Shown here: positions 23,601-60,673 of the stretch, piece after piece | How the letters are laid out: every line of letters begins with the position of its first letter | Numbering within the stretch: position 1 is the stretch's first letter | NCBI GenBank assembly: GCA_023267375.1 | Contig: JAHFNJ010000005.1 | Coordinates: 1,285 to 65,284 of the forward strand | Direction of reading: 5' to 3' | Source of the DNA: Candidatus Nomurabacteria bacterium | GTDB taxonomy: Bacteria; Patescibacteriota; Minisyncoccia; Phycocordibacterales; UBA9973 | Length of the DNA: 64,000 nt | Position numbers and translations under genes: made by a program | Notes under the pieces: generated by a model | The model's input: only the letters and a program-made list of their open reading frames with translations | What the model was told of the DNA's origin: nothing | Databases searched by the model: none

Positions 23601-23672
23601 CGCGGGGAGGAGCAACGGTTGCTCGTCGGGCTCATAACCCGAAGGTAGTTGGTTCAATTCCAGCCCCCGCAA
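23601..23672 (+). tRNA. tRNA-fMet (initiator, anticodon CAU)
   Basis: Manual fold: CGCGGGG/AG/GAGC-AACGGTT-GCTC/G/TCGGG-CTCATAA-CCCGA/AGGTA/GTTGG-TTCAATT-CCAGC/CCCCGCA/A. It has the C1:A72 mismatch and three G:C pairs closing the anticodon stem, both hallmarks of the bacterial initiator. It is near-identical to E. coli tRNA-fMet. CCA is not encoded. Confidence 0.85.
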
Positions 23673-23678
23673 CAATTC

Positions 23679-23810
23679 AACAAACCGGTAGGTTTGTGAA
23701 TTTTGCGAGGGGAGTAAGCAAATTGATTTGCTTACGTCTGGAATTGAAAGACTTTTCGTTGCCGAGCTTTGCTCGGTCGAAAAGTACCTGGCTACGTGGT
23801 AGCCAATGAA
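23679..23810 (+). mobile_element. 132-bp insert flanked by a 17-bp direct repeat of the tRNA-fMet 3' end; putative small non-autonomous integrative element or remnant
   Basis: agcccccgcaacaattc occurs at 23662-23678 (tRNA 3' end) and again at 23811-27. The insert contains hairpins caaaccGGTAggtttg, gtaagcaaatTGAtttgcttac, ccgagcTTTgctcgg and ggctacGTGgtagcc. It is homologous to the insert at 59306-59412. Confidence 0.35.
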
Positions 23811-23868
23811 AGCCCCCGCAACAATTCGGCACGTGACATGCCCACTATGTCTATTTGCTGAATAATAT

Positions 23869-23942
23869 GTCGGCGTAGCTCAGGTAGTTAGAGCATGGCA
23901 CTCATAAAGCCAAGGTCGGAGGTGCAAGTCCTCCCGCCGACA
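23869..23942 (+). tRNA. tRNA with anticodon CAU (elongator Met or Ile2-lysidine)
   Basis: Manual fold: GTCGGCG/TA/GCTC-AGGTAGTTA-GAGC/A/TGGCA-CTCATAA-AGCCA/AGGTC/GGAGG-TGCAAGT-CCTCC/CGCCGAC/A. The acceptor stem is perfect. There is one A.A mismatch at the base of the anticodon stem. Confidence 0.7.
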
Positions 23943-24135
23943 CCCGTTTAGGCGGAACAAGCAAATTTATTTGCTTGTGTGAGGACTTGCAAGGCGCAGC
24001 TATACTTTGCCAGTAGGCAAAGTAGCGAGCCGGGGTCGAGAAATTTTGCGAGTGACGGCGAGCAAAATATTCGTGACCAAGTCCTAGAAATTAGAAAATT
24101 TTTCTAATTTGTGGTAGTTTAGAGAAGTTATATTT

Positions 24136-24209
24136 GCGGGCGTAGCTCAGCTGGTTAGAGCGCTCCCCTGTCACGGGAGAGGTCGTGGGTTCAAATCCCA
24201 TCGCTCGCG
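24136..24209 (+). tRNA. tRNA-Asp (anticodon GUC)
   Basis: Manual fold: GCGGGCG/TA/GCTC-AGCTGGTTA-GAGC/G/CTCCC-CTGTCAC-GGGAG/AGGTC/GTGGG-TTCAAAT-CCCAT/CGCTCGC/G. There is one G-U pair in the acceptor stem. Confidence 0.85.
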
Positions 24210-24214
24210 CAATT

Positions 24215-24241
24215 AAAAAATCCCCTTTATGGGGATTTTTT
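24215..24241 (+). terminator. Rho-independent terminator after tRNA-Asp
   Basis: aaaaaaTCCCCtttatGGGGAtttttt: stem AAATCCCC/GGGGATTT followed by a T-run. Confidence 0.7.
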
Positions 24242-24389
24242 AATGCGAGCGAAGCAAGACAACTGCTTGTCTTGCGTTGGGATTTGAACAGCGGAGCTAT
24301 GTTTTACAAGCTTGCAAAACAAGCGAGCTGGTGCCCAGACCGAGCCGAGTGGCGACGAGGCGAGAGTCGCGGGAAAATCCCATCGCTTA

Positions 24390-24433
24390 CACACATAAGA
24401 AAATTCCCATAAAAAGGAATTTTCTTATGTGTG
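24390..24433 (+). promoter_or_regulatory. Perfect 18-bp stem hairpin 35 nt upstream of the AsnB-like gene start
   Basis: CACACATAAGAAAATTCC-cataaaaa-GGAATTTTCTTATGTGTG: 18/18 complementary pairs with an 8-nt loop. No clean T-run follows, so it is more likely a regulatory or protein-binding structure than a terminator. Confidence 0.4.
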
Positions 24434-24468
24434 GTCGAAAATATTTTTTATCTGCTATAATTCTCAAC

Positions 24469-27400
24469 ATGTGTGGCATTACTGCAGTTTTCAATTCTAG
24501 TAACTCAGAATTAAAAGCCAATAAATCTCTAGAAAAAATCCAACATAGAGGAGGTAGTACTTTTGAGCTGGAAACATTTCCAAACGCAACTATCGGCGCT
24601 AATCGTTTGCCTATAGTTGGAAGACTCTCTGGAAAGCAACCTCTCCATAATGAAGACAAGACTATTTTTGCAGTTCAGAATGGTGAAATTTTTAATCATA
24701 AAGAATTACGTGCTGAACTTGAAAAACTGAATCATGTTTTTTCATCTGAATCAGATACAGAGGTTCTCGTGCATGCGTACGAAGAATGGGGATCTGAAAT
24801 GGTATATAAGCTGGATTCGGAGATGTATGCATTTATTGTATACAACACAAAAACTAAAGATATCTTCGCCGCTCGTGATCCACTTGGAGTAAAACCTTTT
24901 TATTACACAAAAACTAAAGATGGAGAAATATTATTTGCTTCAGAGTTGAAGCAGCTAGTGCAATTTGAAAACGTAACTACAGTGAATGAATTTCCACAAG
25001 GTAGCTATTACTTCAATGGAAAATTCACTAAATACTTTAAAATAGAAGATCCAAAAACGAAGCTTTCCGAAACTTCCGCTATTCGTTTGCTTGAAAAAAA
25101 TATTGTTGAGGCAGTGAGAAAACGAGTAGATACAGATTTACCTATCGGTGTCTTTTTAAGTGGAGGAGTTGACAGCTCTCTTGTTATGGAAATCGCGACG
25201 CGTTTTCATCCGGATGTCACTGCTATTATTTTAGGAAATACCGGTTCTTCGGATTATGAATTTGCTCTACGTCTCTGTAAGGACCGTGGATACAAATATC
25301 AGATAGTATCTCCAAATATCGACTATAAACAAGAGCTTGATGAGGTACTCTATTACCTGGAAACATATGAGCCATTGGTGATTCGGCAAGGATTTGCCAA
25401 CTGGATTTGTTCTCGTGAAGCACAGAAGCTCGGCTTGAGCATTGTTCTTGTTGGCGAAGGAGCTGATGAATTGTTTGCTGGATACAATGAGTTTTCTGCT
25501 CTGTCAGATAATAATATAAATAAGGGGTGTAAAATGCTTACTGAAAATCTTGGCAAAGGCCATCTCAAGCGAGTTGATCGTGGGGCGATGCGTTTTACCG
25601 TAGAAGTAAGATCTCCCTTGTTAGATACCAAAGTCATTGATACCGCGTTTAAAATCAAAGGAGATTTAAAAATTAAAAAAGAAAATCATCGTGTTACTAC
25701 AAAATATATTCTTCGCAAGGTGGCTGAAAACTTTCTACCAGACTACATTGCATGGCGCTATAAGATGCCTTTTGCTAATGGAGCCGGAATGAATGTGGGT
25801 TATAACTATAAATCTGGCGATGGTGCGCTTGGAGAAATAACTAAATCATACAAGACTACAATTGATTCAAAAACCGCAAAAGAATTTAAACTCGAAACCC
25901 CAGAAGAGAATTATTACTTCCAAAAGTTTAAGGAATTTGGCTACGCAAAGCTTGCCGAAGCAAAGGACCGAATAATAGTAAAAGACATTCTACAAACCCT
26001 CAATACCTCAAAAAAGCAGAGGATTGTTGTGGCAGAGTTCGGAAAGTTAGCTCTTTATTTTCCTGTATATTTAGCTGCACAAAAGAAAATTTTTGATATG
26101 CATGAGTTGGAGGTTGATTTCATTGCAACTGGTGGCGACGATAAAACATACGCGACCCTGTTGAACAATTCAGGACAAATAGGTCTTTCTGACCCTCTAT
26201 TCGCAATGTTTGAAGACGGAATAAACATGAATGGATACGGTGAAATAATTGGAGAGTTGGTTCACTCAACTCCAATTGTTGCAGTAACACTTAACCCAAA
26301 GATTACTATCAATTCACTTCAGGATTTTTCTCAATATAAGGTTGGATCTTTTCAAAAATACTCCACGACAAACACCGTAGCTTCGTATCTTTTGAAAAAC
26401 CAAAACATTTCTGCCTATGACTTTAAAGAGTTTCCAAGCAAGCTAGTTGATAGAGAGATCGATATCGCCGTAGTACTGCTTGAACAAGCACTTAATATCG
26501 AAGCATTAGGTGGCAGAATCGTACACGATTTTAGAAACGATATGTCTCAATACCTATTTTCTGGTTTTACAATTGCTTCGACGTTACCTAAAAATGTAAG
26601 GGGTAAACTTCCTAGTTTCACTTCAGCTATTAAAGAAGCTTTGAAGTACATCAAATTCAATCAAGCAGATGCTGTTGCTGAATTTAGAGCATTGTTCCCA
26701 GAGTTGATAAACCCAGAAAAAGTATTACTTGAATACCAAAAGTTTTGGGTCCAGAGTCTTAAAATCAACAGAGAAGACTATCTCAAGTCGCACACTACGT
26801 GGAAAAGCTTGTACCCAAACATACTTAAGAATCATGACCTCCCTTACTACCGAAGTTATTCAGACGCAGATAAAATCCTAGATACGATAAATGCCCGGGC
26901 AATTCGTAGAGAATATCCATATCGTGAAGATAAGCTTATTGAACTAATAAATAAAAAAATCAGCACAAAAGAACCACTTACTTTTTTTGGTTTTTGGGGT
27001 GCAGGACCAAAAAAAGATACGGATGATCGCGATAAACGAACCTTGGACTATCTCGCTCAGTACATCTCGAACTTAAACAAAGTATATAAAAATGGAGTTT
27101 CTGTGACTTTTATATTAGCGGACAAGCATGCTGAAAATAACGAGTACGACAAATCAAATATTGGCCCATACATTCAACAAGTAAAACAAGAGATGGCAAA
27201 TCGTGGGTTTAAAACGGTTTTACTGTCCGATATCTGGAAAAAATATGACCTTACCCGCGATAAAGTTGTTTCCACACTTAATTCCAAGCCAAAAGGATGG
27301 TGGCAGAAGATTTCCATTGCAAAAAAACTAGAAGAGAAATCCAATGAATATTTCAATGGAGCTGACAAGTTACTTGGTGCACAGCGCTATTATGTATTAA

Positions 27401-27561
27401 GAGATCTAGAAAAAAGAATACTAAAACAAGAGTATCCGGACTCAATATTCTTTGTATATGGAGACAGTTTTGCCCAGCAAATCTATCCGGATATGCCTAC
27501 TCTGTATTTCTTTACTGAAAAGATCTATTACGGCAATTGTCCTTGGTTTAATCTTGATTAG
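24469..27561 (+). CDS. Asparagine synthetase-like class II glutamine amidotransferase fused to a ~500-aa C-terminal extension (NMT1/THI5-like periplasmic-binding-fold segment plus unknown domain)
   Basis: 1030 aa from the MCGITAVFN start (Ntn Cys2 nucleophile). The PP-loop is VFLSGGVDSSLVM and the AsnB C-domain is ...GEGADELFAGY.... Residues ~560-800 (...IVVAEFGKLALYFPVYLAAQKKIFDMHELEVDFIATGGDDKTYATLLNNSGQIGLSDP...) resemble SsuA/NMT1-type binding domains. The last ~200 aa are unassigned. AT-rich (~35% GC). The track start at 24277 is an upstream extension through the hairpin. Confidence 0.7.
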   Translation: MCGITAVFNSSNSELKANKSLEKIQHRGGSTFELETFPNATIGANRLPIVGRLSGKQPLHNEDKTIFAVQNGEIFNHKELRAELEKLNHVFSSESDTEVLVHAYEEWGSEMVYKLDSEMYAFIVYNTKTKDIFAARDPLGVKPFYYTKTKDGEILFASELKQLVQFENVTTVNEFPQGSYYFNGKFTKYFKIEDPKTKLSETSAIRLLEKNIVEAVRKRVDTDLPIGVFLSGGVDSSLVMEIATRFHPDVTAIILGNTGSSDYEFALRLCKDRGYKYQIVSPNIDYKQELDEVLYYLETYEPLVIRQGFANWICSREAQKLGLSIVLVGEGADELFAGYNEFSALSDNNINKGCKMLTENLGKGHLKRVDRGAMRFTVEVRSPLLDTKVIDTAFKIKGDLKIKKENHRVTTKYILRKVAENFLPDYIAWRYKMPFANGAGMNVGYNYKSGDGALGEITKSYKTTIDSKTAKEFKLETPEENYYFQKFKEFGYAKLAEAKDRIIVKDILQTLNTSKKQRIVVAEFGKLALYFPVYLAAQKKIFDMHELEVDFIATGGDDKTYATLLNNSGQIGLSDPLFAMFEDGINMNGYGEIIGELVHSTPIVAVTLNPKITINSLQDFSQYKVGSFQKYSTTNTVASYLLKNQNISAYDFKEFPSKLVDREIDIAVVLLEQALNIEALGGRIVHDFRNDMSQYLFSGFTIASTLPKNVRGKLPSFTSAIKEALKYIKFNQADAVAEFRALFPELINPEKVLLEYQKFWVQSLKINREDYLKSHTTWKSLYPNILKNHDLPYYRSYSDADKILDTINARAIRREYPYREDKLIELINKKISTKEPLTFFGFWGAGPKKDTDDRDKRTLDYLAQYISNLNKVYKNGVSVTFILADKHAENNEYDKSNIGPYIQQVKQEMANRGFKTVLLSDIWKKYDLTRDKVVSTLNSKPKGWWQKISIAKKLEEKSNEYFNGADKLLGAQRYYVLRDLEKRILKQEYPDSIFFVYGDSFAQQIYPDMPTLYFFTEKIYYGNCPWFNLD

Positions 27562-59085: not shown

Positions 59086-59231
59086 CTAGAGAACCTGTTC
59101 TTTTGAATAGAATAATGATATGGACGTTTGTTTCGGATTCAACCACACTATTCAAATACAATCCGTTTCAAATTAATTTGTCCAGCTTTCCATCTTTTCA
59201 ACCCCGTAAGGTTGTACCGGAAAGCCTTTTT

Positions 59232-59304
59232 GCCACCTTAGCTCAGTTGGTAGAGCACGTCTTTCGTAAAGACGGGGTCCGCAGTTCGATCCTGCGAGGT
59301 GGCT
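59232..59304 (+). tRNA. tRNA-Thr (anticodon CGU)
   Basis: Manual fold: GCCACCT/TA/GCTC-AGTTGGTA-GAGC/A/CGTCT-TTCGTAA-AGACG/GGGTC/CGCAG-TTCGATC-CTGCG/AGGTGGC/T. Confidence 0.85.
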
Positions 59305-59305
59305 C

Positions 59306-59412
59306 ACGAAGTGAGGTAGCTCAGTTCGCAACCTGCGTTGCGAACGGCAGGATCGAAAGACTTTTCCGTACAAGCGAAGCGAGGTGGAAAAGTACCTGGC
59401 TATGTAATAGCC
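59306..59412 (+). mobile_element. 107-bp insert flanked by an 18-bp direct repeat of the tRNA-Thr(CGU) 3' end; homolog of the element after tRNA-fMet
   Basis: gatcctgcgaggtggctc occurs at 59288-59305 (inside the tRNA) and again at 59413-59430. The insert shares gaaagactttTC...GAAAAGTACCTGGCTAyGTrrTAGCC with the 23679-23810 insert, including a covarying hairpin (ggctatGTAatagcc vs ggctacGTGgtagcc). It also contains a tRNA-like fragment, GGTAGCTCAGTT...GGATCGAAAG. Confidence 0.35.
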
Positions 59413-59448
59413 GATCCTGCGAGGTGGCTCCAAATATCCACATTTTCT

Positions 59449-59776: not shown

Positions 59777-60673
59777 ATGGCAAATAGACATTTATCACGA
59801 TCAATTGTGCTCCAAATCCTCTTTGAGTGGGATTTTAATGGGGGGCATACTGAAAATGTAAAAGAAATAACTGGACGAATCATTGAAGAATTCGGCCCTG
59901 GTTTAAACGACAGCGCCTTTGTGAATGGCCTTGTTGATCTTGTCATTACAAAACAGAAAATAATCGATGAAATCATCGAGAAAGCTGCGCCTGATTGGCC
60001 GATCGCAAAAATCTCCATCGTTGATCGCAATATCCTCCGCATGGGACTTACGGAGCTTCTTTTTGGCGACCGTGAGCAAGTGCCGCCGAAGGTAGCCATT
60101 AATGAGGCTATTGAGCTCGCTAAGACCTTTGGAGGTGAGAACTCAAGTAAGTTCGTCAACGGTGTACTCGGTGCGGTATACAAGGAAATTGGCGAACCAG
60201 GCAAAGAACAAGTAAGTAAGAAGAAAAAGGAAGATGTCGTGATTGACCCATCAAAACTACCTGTTGAAAAGAAGGGTGGTGCGGTTGTGTATGCGAGGCA
60301 TGATGGTACAATTTACTTCGCATTAGTGCATGACGTTTTCGGTTATTGGACGCTCTCAAAGGGCGGTATCGAAGCCGGAGAAGATGAAAAGCAGGCGACC
60401 ATCCGTGAAATCAAGGAGGAAATCGGACTTGATATCACCATTGTTGAAAAGCTCGGCGAGAACGAGTATATTGCTTCACATCCGGTGCAGGGCAAGATTC
60501 GAAAGCAGGTGTCCTATTTCTTGGGCGAATCTGAGTACAAGCCAGTTGTGCTTGAAGAATCTGGTGGACTCGATGATGCCAAATGGTTTTCAATGGCGGA
60601 AGTTGCAAACCTGAAGATGTATGATGATATTTTTCCGCTGATCGGCAAGTCGGTTGAACTATTAACAAAGTAA
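59777..60673 (+). CDS. nusB: NusB antitermination factor fused to a C-terminal NUDIX hydrolase domain
   Basis: The N-terminal ~150 aa are NusB-like (...SRSIVLQILFEWDF...VDRNILRMGLTELLF...AINEAIELAKTFGGENSSKFVNGVLGAV). The C-terminal ~140 aa carry a NUDIX box, GGIEAGEDEKQATIREIKEEIGL (G-x5-E-x7-REUxEExGU). Confidence 0.7.
   Translation: MANRHLSRSIVLQILFEWDFNGGHTENVKEITGRIIEEFGPGLNDSAFVNGLVDLVITKQKIIDEIIEKAAPDWPIAKISIVDRNILRMGLTELLFGDREQVPPKVAINEAIELAKTFGGENSSKFVNGVLGAVYKEIGEPGKEQVSKKKKEDVVIDPSKLPVEKKGGAVVYARHDGTIYFALVHDVFGYWTLSKGGIEAGEDEKQATIREIKEEIGLDITIVEKLGENEYIASHPVQGKIRKQVSYFLGESEYKPVVLEESGGLDDAKWFSMAEVANLKMYDDIFPLIGKSVELLTK

Follow-up and report, generated by a model that had tools for sequence, protein, structure and literature searches.

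Integration of the T-loop type, mediated by integrases, is reportedly recognized by a repeat that begins in the T-loop of a tRNA gene, by transfer-messenger RNA (tmRNA) genes among the targets, by an imported gene end and by serial integration. Group I introns are abundant in tRNA genes of Patescibacteria (PMC13011429). Here we describe an insert of 107 nucleotides (nt) behind the tRNA-Thr(CGU) gene of Candidatus Nomurabacteria bacterium, in a 64,000-nt stretch of its DNA (GCA_023267375.1, contig JAHFNJ010000005.1, positions 1,285 to 65,284 of the forward strand; hereafter the window, with position 1 at its first letter), and the family to which it belongs. Like the islands and prophages of tyrosine integrases, members of this family show a repeat from the T-loop to the 3' end, a replacement gene end, tmRNA and protein-gene 3' ends among the targets, and nested copies. 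Unlike those islands, they are only about 110-190 nt long and have no integrase or other open reading frame (ORF), they contain a folded scaffold with RNA-type covariation, an antisense arm lies across the junction, and one scaffold is found with about 20 target specificities. Group I introns of Patescibacteria occur in the same host clade and likewise prefer tRNA genes. The family has a recognizable architecture and a strand-specific structure, its sites exist in empty and filled form, insertions are serial and in tandem, and imported gene ends are constrained as coding sequence. We favor, with moderate confidence, the reading that the inserts are small, ORF-less, horizontally mobile, intron-like integrative elements of Patescibacteria (Paceibacteria/Nomurabacteria).

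The Thr-CGU locus consists of the following parts.

59232-59305, + strand: tRNA-Thr(CGU), the target gene (ARAGORN; 62 bits in Rfam)
59288-59305, + strand: copy 1, the last 18 nt of tRNA-Thr(CGU), from T-loop G57 to the discriminator plus 1
59311-59323, + strand: degenerate sense-like copy of the acceptor 3' strand, GTGAGGTAGCTCA against GCGAGGTGGCTCA (sequence comparison)
59324-59345, + strand: hairpin P2, a 9-bp stem with a CUGC loop (covariation)
59347-59357, + strand: arm A3, GCAGGATCGAA, the reverse complement of tRNA positions 54-64
59359-59393, + strand: P4, an invariant stem GACUUUUC/GAAAAGU(C) with a variable distal hairpin (covariation)
59394-59412, + strand: ACCU junction and hairpin P5, GGCUAUGUAAUAGCC, with a GUR triloop; 3' end of the element (covariation and fold)
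59413-59430, + strand: copy 2 of the tRNA-Thr(CGU) 3' end, from G57 to the 3' end (repeat search and comparison with the relative L094)

The window contains GATCCTGCGAGGTGGCTC two times and no more, at 59288-59305 and, 125 nt downstream, at 59413-59430, and two or more matches appeared in 0 of 100 shuffles; the repeat becomes 19 nt when the preceding C is counted, and 107 nt (59306-59412) lie between the copies. ARAGORN, Rfam and the shuffles thus bear out the 18-nt duplication of the tRNA 3' end around a 107-nt insert that an earlier note, made from the letters of this DNA alone, had reported. The homology that it had proposed with the insert behind the initiator-type tRNA-Met (Met-i) of the window was also confirmed: GAAAAGTACCTGGCTA is present in the window at 59387 and 23779 only, and the two inserts can be aligned from the P2 hairpin through TAGCC. 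What it had taken for a tRNA-like fragment in the insert was misread, since GCAGGATCGAA is the reverse complement of the T-loop and T-stem of the tRNA itself and not a sense copy. This arm A3 spans the junction, with TTC on the left and GATCCTGC on the right. The sense-like stretch GTGAGGTAGCTCA directly adjoins the P2 hairpin and stands where other copies of the family have an antisense arm, A1; the ortholog in locus L069 has the same sense-like feature in the place of A1. We infer that copy 2 at Thr-CGU is the displaced original gene end, which may once have encoded CCA. A CCA follows copy 2 both in the window (59431-59433) and in L094 (9598-9601), and the functional tRNA gene has none.

In the family, the order on the tRNA strand is tRNA, often an A-rich/T-rich intrinsic terminator, A1, P2, A3, an A, P4, ACCU, P5 and copy 2. 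A1 is antisense to the acceptor 3' strand together with the trailer or, where CCA is encoded, with CCA. P2 has 9 bp, is placed between A1 and A3 among the 60 tRNA-adjacent copies of the scaffold type found at Thr-CGU (type A), and has the loop CTGC in 50 of 90 copies. A3 is 12 nt long and antisense to T54-N65, spanning the junction C56|R57 with 3 nt on the left and 7-9 nt on the right; all 12 nt are complementary in 37 of 60 loci, and 11 of the 12 in another 17. P4 keeps the invariant GACUUUUC/GAAAAGU and a variable tip family-wide, and P5 reads GGCUAYGURRUAGCC. Copy 2, 4-28 nt long, adjoins P5 and begins with position 57 in 41 of the 60 loci and reaches or passes the tRNA end in many. It is truncated or degenerate in about one third of loci, where the arms still correspond to the tRNA itself; throughout, it is the adjacent gene that the arms fit, and the scaffold is constant. 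Only 21 of 672 arm-tRNA pairs are mismatched, 5 of them of G·U type, and this scarcity of mismatches and of G·U means that the arms are exact copies of the target and not merely stems that selection keeps paired. A3 also tracks the non-canonical T-loop TGC of the elongator tRNA-Met (Met-e) and the diverged tRNA-Asp of L094. In elements with another scaffold (type B), A3 spans the junction as well, both at tRNA 3' ends (CAC|AAAAGCG) and in the topoisomerase I gene topA (ACC|AAAACTA and CAC|AAAAAC).

We scanned contigs of one genome per species with a type-A core motif, GACTTTTC-N12-40-GAAAAGTACCTGGC. It was found in 90 genome stretches, all but one labelled as metagenome-assembled genomes (MAGs) of Patescibacteria (Paceibacteria, Nomurabacteria, Minisyncoccia and similar); the single exception, inside a coding region of Polyangia, was dismissed as a chance match. 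Same-strand tRNAs of 18 amino-acid identities precede the motif by 30-106 nt in 60 of 95 matches, and most of the others belong to tandem arrays that follow a tRNA, or are found behind tmRNA, behind degraded tRNA ends or at contig ends. A tmRNA (ARAGORN) followed by a type-A element, the arms of which match the T-arm and acceptor end of the tmRNA, was found in L029 (4792-5350), L036 (5726-6274) and L037 (1474-2013). A covariance model of the family matched 127 copies in 697 kb (93 loci), so that the further copies at other tRNA genes that the earlier note had proposed to look for number at least 127 model matches, nearly all behind a tRNA or tmRNA. Among bystander tRNAs, an antisense T-arm match of at least 10 nt was present within 260 nt downstream in 27 of 88, against 5 of 159 in the upstream control. 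The type-B motif was found in at least 120 metagenome stretches, of which at least 25 passed filters on the scaffold end and base composition, at least 16 of these being tRNA-adjacent. Viral contigs scanned with the core motif gave 0 matches. Rfam returned tRNAs and noise only, at the gathering score on the whole window and at E up to 5-10 on both tRNA regions, and in the literature we found no paper describing such elements, only the unrelated group I introns in the anticodon loop of Patescibacteria tRNAs (PMC13011429). The family is widespread and, as far as the available libraries show, apparently undescribed.

L009 and L061 (both on CALQZW010000002.1, about 6 kb apart) carry two near-identical tRNA-Val-specific elements, one behind tRNA-Val and the other behind an apparent degraded T-arm remnant yet with a more intact copy 2. 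In L075 (6185-6500, minus strand of the locus), tRNA-Phe is followed by an inverted type-C-like element, then by a partial tRNA duplicate (anticodon arm to T-arm) and a type-A element, in a nested rearrangement.

We next examined covariation in a structure consisting of P2, P3 (A3 with copy 2), P4 and P5, with shuffles (n=500) and slid partners as controls. Paired cells amounted to 94.1%, compared with 79.3% in shuffles and 33-48% with slid partners, and 301 cells were changed on both sides, a number exceeded in 0 of 500 shuffles, which gave 74.5. All nine pairs of P2 covary, as do the ninth pair of P4 (CG 24, UA 20, GC 16, AU 5) and two pairs of P5. The compensatory change in P5 that the earlier note had seen between two copies, GGCTAC/GTAGCC versus GGCTAT/ATAGCC, holds generally over 90 copies (UA 39, CG 32, UG 14 at this pair), and covariation beyond the two copies is strong in P2, P4 and P5. 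Wobble is one-sided on the tRNA strand: 170 pairs were of G·T type and 15 of A·C type in a hairpin search that is biased towards G·T, and the unbiased count in fixed P5 columns was 16 versus 1. This means that a single strand of tRNA polarity folds, and with about 11% G·U in P2, P4 and P5 that strand is most simply RNA. A terminator scan had flagged P5 as a minus-strand terminator, which was ruled out by the wobble pairs on the plus strand.

Such RNA-like covariation and G·U content, on the same strand as the tRNA, would also be expected of a stationary, cis-encoded non-coding RNA derived from the tRNA 3' trailer. In that reading the arms and copy 2 would mimic the top half of acceptor and T-stem, P2 would take the place of the D/anticodon domain, and the RNA would be excised by RNase P and RNase Z like mascRNA and act as a tRNA-like regulator, decoy or substrate, with new copies arising by local duplication. 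Predicted folds do make P1/P3 with copy 2 (z-scores near -4.7), P2 lies exactly at the 65/66 boundary of acceptor and T-stem, the scaffold sequence is conserved across distant Paceibacteria, and some elements appear to be vertically inherited. A minihelix of the mascRNA type can form where copy 2 is intact. In the roughly one third of loci with a decayed copy 2, however, the arms still match the tRNA. The arms also include the complement of T54-C56 and of the trailer, which are absent from copy 2 or the mature tRNA, their pairs are almost purely Watson-Crick, unlike the internal stems, and a terminator stands between tRNA and arms in about 75% of loci. We therefore regard a stationary RNA as unlikely, though it is the alternative that we take most seriously.

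Comparison with relatives showed that the same tRNA gene can be occupied or empty. In L094 (GCA_040384425.1) the NusB-Nudix protein is 80% identical to that of the window and the gene order is the same. The sites compare as follows.

tRNA-Met-i site: about 149 extra nt before the flank TTCGGCACGTGACATGCC in the window; flank directly after the tRNA in L094
tRNA-Met-e site: about 140 extra nt before the terminator AAATTAGA...TCTAATTT in the window; terminator directly after the tRNA in L094
Thr-CGU site: type-A insert in the window; an unrelated 63-nt insert in L094, between a copy 1 and a copy 2 plus CCAA that are the same as in the window
Thr-GGU/Thr-CGU spacer: 145 nt in the window; 8 nt in L094
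tRNA-Asp site: an element of a third scaffold type, B', in the window; the same type in L094, with arms changed in step with a much-diverged tRNA-Asp

The Thr-GGU/Thr-CGU spacer holds a bona fide element in L069, the orthologous Met-Met-Asp cluster has other patterns of occupancy and type in L044, L057 and L072, and tandem arrays mix scaffold types behind one tRNA. Because orthologous tRNAs may have no element, an element of another type or a decayed copy, mobile elements fit these data better than an obligatory 3'-processing module does, and the same variation speaks against a stationary RNA. The earlier note had left the choice between small tRNA-targeting elements and a conserved 3' module; the first part stands, supported by the copies, the covariation and the empty sites, and the second, as an obligatory module, fits less well.

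Protein genes provided evidence on where the repeat comes from. In L045 (2939-3412) a type-B element (P2, A3 and scaffold) lies at the end of an ORF that resembles topoisomerase I. The final 19 codons of this ORF are present on both sides of the element; the copies show 10 nt differences, which fall in 7 codons and are all synonymous (7:0), and a third, more decayed copy of the gene end follows a further insert, giving three nested copies. L159 (5600-5875), from another lineage, has a type-B element at the same topoisomerase I site (…EGT|KTIPERC…), with 18 nt differences over 18 codons that make 11 synonymous and 2 non-synonymous codon changes. These topA repeats are 57-70 nt long. Since synonymous divergence accumulates only while both copies code in separate lineages, the element must have arrived with a working gene end. 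Such an imported replacement end is the signature of an integrative element, not a target-site duplication. The earlier note's view of the repeat as a target duplication is thus not upheld, given the variable repeat length and the synonymous-site differences between protein-gene copies, which also mean that one copy was carried by the element. Tracts of template and variable repeat from a diversity-generating retroelement were ruled out for topA, as the differences are not adenine-specific. Mimicry of tRNA, as a stationary RNA would have it, gives no account of the same scaffold in the end of topA with almost only synonymous divergence between the repeats. Separately, in L042 (3381-3527) a 75-nt insert lies between two copies of the first 12 codons of lepA, which differ at 3 sites, all synonymous on our reading; this is a mirror-image case with a replacement 5' end.

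A repeat running from the T-loop to or beyond the 3' end, a gene restored by an imported end, tmRNA as a further target and serial integrations would all be left by integrase-mediated elements or prophages as well, and the inserts could be scars of these, with nearly everything between attL and attR deleted. Random deletion, though, would not leave the same covarying scaffolds of 65-90 nt in more than 120 copies, nor an antisense arm matched to each site. The surrounding sequence, about 0.7 Mb, showed neither an integrase nor kb-scale repeats, and viral contigs lack the core motif. We consider such scars highly improbable.

The integrative reading that we favor can be put as a sequence of steps. 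The element would carry copy 1, a replacement for the 3' part of the target gene (in tRNAs, from position 57 up to the 3' end) that often brings a terminator of its own, followed by an antisense guide in which A3 covers about 3 nt to the left and 7-9 nt to the right of the insertion point (tRNA elements add A1, with P2 between), and by a folded scaffold (P4-UACCU-P5 in type A) that ends exactly at the insertion point. The guide would pick the target by base pairing. Insertion at C56|R57 would join the 5' part of the gene to copy 1, so that the gene stays intact, and would displace the original 3' part downstream as copy 2, which would then decay except for the 7-9 nt that pair with A3. The active form would be a folded single strand, probably RNA, moved by a trans-acting enzyme or by a ribozyme activity so far unrecognised. 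Priming of reverse transcription by tRNA at a primer-binding site was ruled out, because the arms pair with the gene trailer and not with an added CCA. A T-box-like control of the downstream gene was also ruled out, because downstream genes are unrelated (in the window L32, another tRNA and asnB).

Several observations weigh against this integrative reading. The loci examined show no recombinase, reverse transcriptase or nuclease linked with the elements, no family was present in more than 11 loci when 800 ORFs from them were clustered all against all, and Pfam assigned eight window proteins to housekeeping families or gave no match; with no linked enzyme and no recurrent protein family nearby, the mechanism of movement is wholly inferred. 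An autonomous version was sought as kb-scale repeats of tRNA ends in the same 0.7 Mb around the loci, and none was seen. The reading also gives no account of how one scaffold gains arms for about 20 targets. Many copies look old and vertically inherited, with the same element at the same tRNA in related genomes, and mobility may be rare. In L077 the arms match copy 2 and not the present tRNA. The insertion at Met-e has a flanking repeat no longer than 7-8 nt, which the model can accommodate only by a later deletion of 16 nt from copy 2. Finally, the evidence from coding genes consists of the two topA loci and the one atypical lepA case.

The layout of the arms resembles that of group I introns, in which a contiguous guide pairs with the left exon end and then with the start of the intron (P1 extension) or with the right exon (P10); the analogy concerns the layout alone. 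A3 brings both junctions into line in the same manner, both junctions are C|R, and the junction nucleotides GAAAG and UACCU are conserved. Moreover, when tRNA and element are folded together, the structure of minimum free energy (-93 kcal/mol, z = -6.9) has copy 2 in the role of the tRNA 3' end, and copy 1 is paired with the arms. These features, in a phylum rich in tRNA group I introns (PMC13011429), would suit an intron-like self-splicing or self-cleaving ribozyme that is excised at C56|R57 and the P5 end purely at the RNA level, DNA mobility being absent or secondary. Splicing would be pointless for the host, however, because the upstream tRNA is already complete: the element begins with a full copy of the 3' exon, which makes the host independent of splicing. 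Copy 2 has often decayed too far to be usable as an exon, and in most loci a terminator lies ahead of the arms. Unlike group I introns, the elements have no P3-P9 core, a scaffold of only 54-90 nt, and no match to the Rfam Intron_gpI model at E up to 5-10 (nor to any group I intron or self-cleaving ribozyme model at E = 10); the junction is C|R without omega-G or U·G, with a C-G pair at the left junction and a C at the element end (GCC or ACC); and they carry a duplicate of the 3' exon and leave the gene uninterrupted, at position 56/57 in the T-loop rather than in the anticodon loop.

Known self-cleaving ribozymes gave no better fit. With cmscan at E up to 10, models of hammerhead, hairpin, hepatitis delta virus (HDV)-like, twister, twister-sister, pistol and hatchet ribozymes returned only weak noise from CRISPR-repeat models. 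By inspection, the three-way junction could not be mapped onto hammerhead, hairpin or HDV ribozymes, and the hammerhead core (CUGANGA, GAAA, UH) is not matched by the junctions GAAAG and UACCU. A likeness of UACCUGG to the 3' end of the hairpin ribozyme was taken as a coincidence. Taken together, an intron or ribozyme that acts on RNA alone seems to us very unlikely, and it is possible as the chemistry behind the integrative reading. The elements could also represent a new RNA-based class of mobile element, a minimal 'exon-carrying intron' whose scaffold of about 65-90 nt would be a novel ribozyme or a handle for a trans-acting enzyme, cutting and joining at a site set by A3 and retargetable to any sequence by a new guide and gene end, and so a natural, protein-less, programmable means of insertion; this reading is quite doubtful.

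Other systems in which nucleic acid sets the joining point share single features with the family. As in IS200/IS605 elements, with their derivatives called PATE, and in the bridge or seek RNAs of IS110/IS1111, a short sequence of the element pairs with flank or target and sets the point of joining; the ends are likewise structured as single strands, and IS200/IS605 also have non-autonomous derivatives. Unlike both, our elements have one contiguous guide of 10-24 nt over both sides, sometimes split by a hairpin, and the right side of the target is duplicated. No match to the IS605-orfB or omega-RNA models of Rfam and no transposase gene or recurrent ORF nearby set them apart from IS200/IS605 and TnpB/IscB, and a single guide plus A1, instead of two loops with split guides, with no recombinase ORF in or beside the elements, sets them apart from IS110/IS1111. 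A miniature inverted-repeat transposable element, or another cut-and-paste transposon, would not produce repeats of variable length (4-28 nt at tRNAs, 57-70 nt in topA) whose divergence predates insertion, and the sole inverted repeat here is target-derived. As in CTX phage attP(+) and integron attC sites, copy 1 and the arms in single-stranded form make a hairpin with the same duplex sequence as the target, and the topology after integration is repeat, inverted copy, repeat. The junction, however, shows neither an XerCD/dif motif nor the integron-integrase motif GTTRRRY, the hairpin sequence is specific to the target rather than to an enzyme, and the G·U content of the other stems points to RNA.

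Elements are present behind 4 of the 5 tRNAs of the window (Met-i, Met-e, Asp and Thr-CGU). The family covariance model, run on the whole 64 kb, matched the following sites, all tRNA-linked, with no others below E = 0.2.

59322-59419: 96 bits
23712-23811: 86 bits
23955-24026: 24.5 bits
24252-24342: 23.3 bits

The three further elements are these.

23662-23827, + strand: sister type-A element behind the initiator-type tRNA-Met (23601-23673), from repeat, fold and covariance model; hairpin 23679-23697, A1 23698-23712, P2 23714-23735, A3 23738-23748, P4 23750-23785, P5 23790-23804
23946-24085, + strand: type-B element behind the elongator tRNA-Met (23868-23945), from covariance model and arm match; A1 23951-23955, P2 23957-23978, A3 23981-23991 (antisense of TGCAAGTCCTC), scaffold 23992-24078, short copy 2 24078-24085, then the native terminator 24088-24110
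24245-24387, + strand: type-B' element behind tRNA-Asp (24136-24210; terminator 24212-24244), from covariance model and arms; A1 24245-24252, P2 24254-24275, A3 24278-24289, scaffold 24290-24373, copy 2 24374-24387

At Met-i the repeat AGCCCCCGCAACAATTC is found at 23662-23678 (copy 1) and 23811-23827 (copy 2); counted from position 57, copy 2 covers 23805-23827 and is 20/23 identical. The Met-e and Asp elements, which the earlier note overlooked, each have an antisense match of 11-12 nt to their own T-arm and a short sense copy from the T-loop onward, and their internal scaffolds differ from type A. Type B consists of GGAGC-hairpin-GCGAG-YCGGGGUCG-hairpin with a GAGYGACGGCGA loop-CGUGACC, and type B' of AGCGGAGC-hairpin-GAGCUGGUGCCCAGAC-hairpin-GUCGCGGG. 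The Thr-GGU/Thr-CGU spacer (59087-59231) has only faint traces (CGGATTCAACC against antisense GGATTGAACC) and a weak similarity to the L069 element, and may be a decayed element.

About one quarter of type-A copies (for example L006, L011, L040 and L048) have an extra hairpin, GAWAAGYGUACUCRYGG, between P5 and copy 2, and the motif GUACU recurs in the P4-P5 junction of several scaffold types. This motif may mark a shared binding site. Elsewhere in the window there are genes for two unusual fusion proteins: positions 59777-60673 encode NusB fused to a NUDIX domain, an architecture kept in thousands of homologues of Paceibacteria, and positions 24427-27561 encode a 1044-aa asparagine-synthase-like protein with an NMT1/THI5-like domain.

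If the elements are mobile, no smaller site-specific integrative element would be known, and they would be the first with a nucleic-acid guide, a folded scaffold and a spare gene end with no encoded protein. They could then account for the harmless persistence of selfish DNA in Patescibacteria, whose genomes are extremely reduced, would offer a new route of tRNA-gene evolution and horizontal exchange, and would point to an unknown recombinase or ribozyme. A guide rule as simple as this, about 3 nt to the left and about 9 nt to the right of the joining point, would clearly be of interest for programmable insertion. Even as a tRNA-like RNA, the family would be a large, conserved and uncatalogued class of RNA that touches the annotation of tRNA loci in thousands of MAGs.

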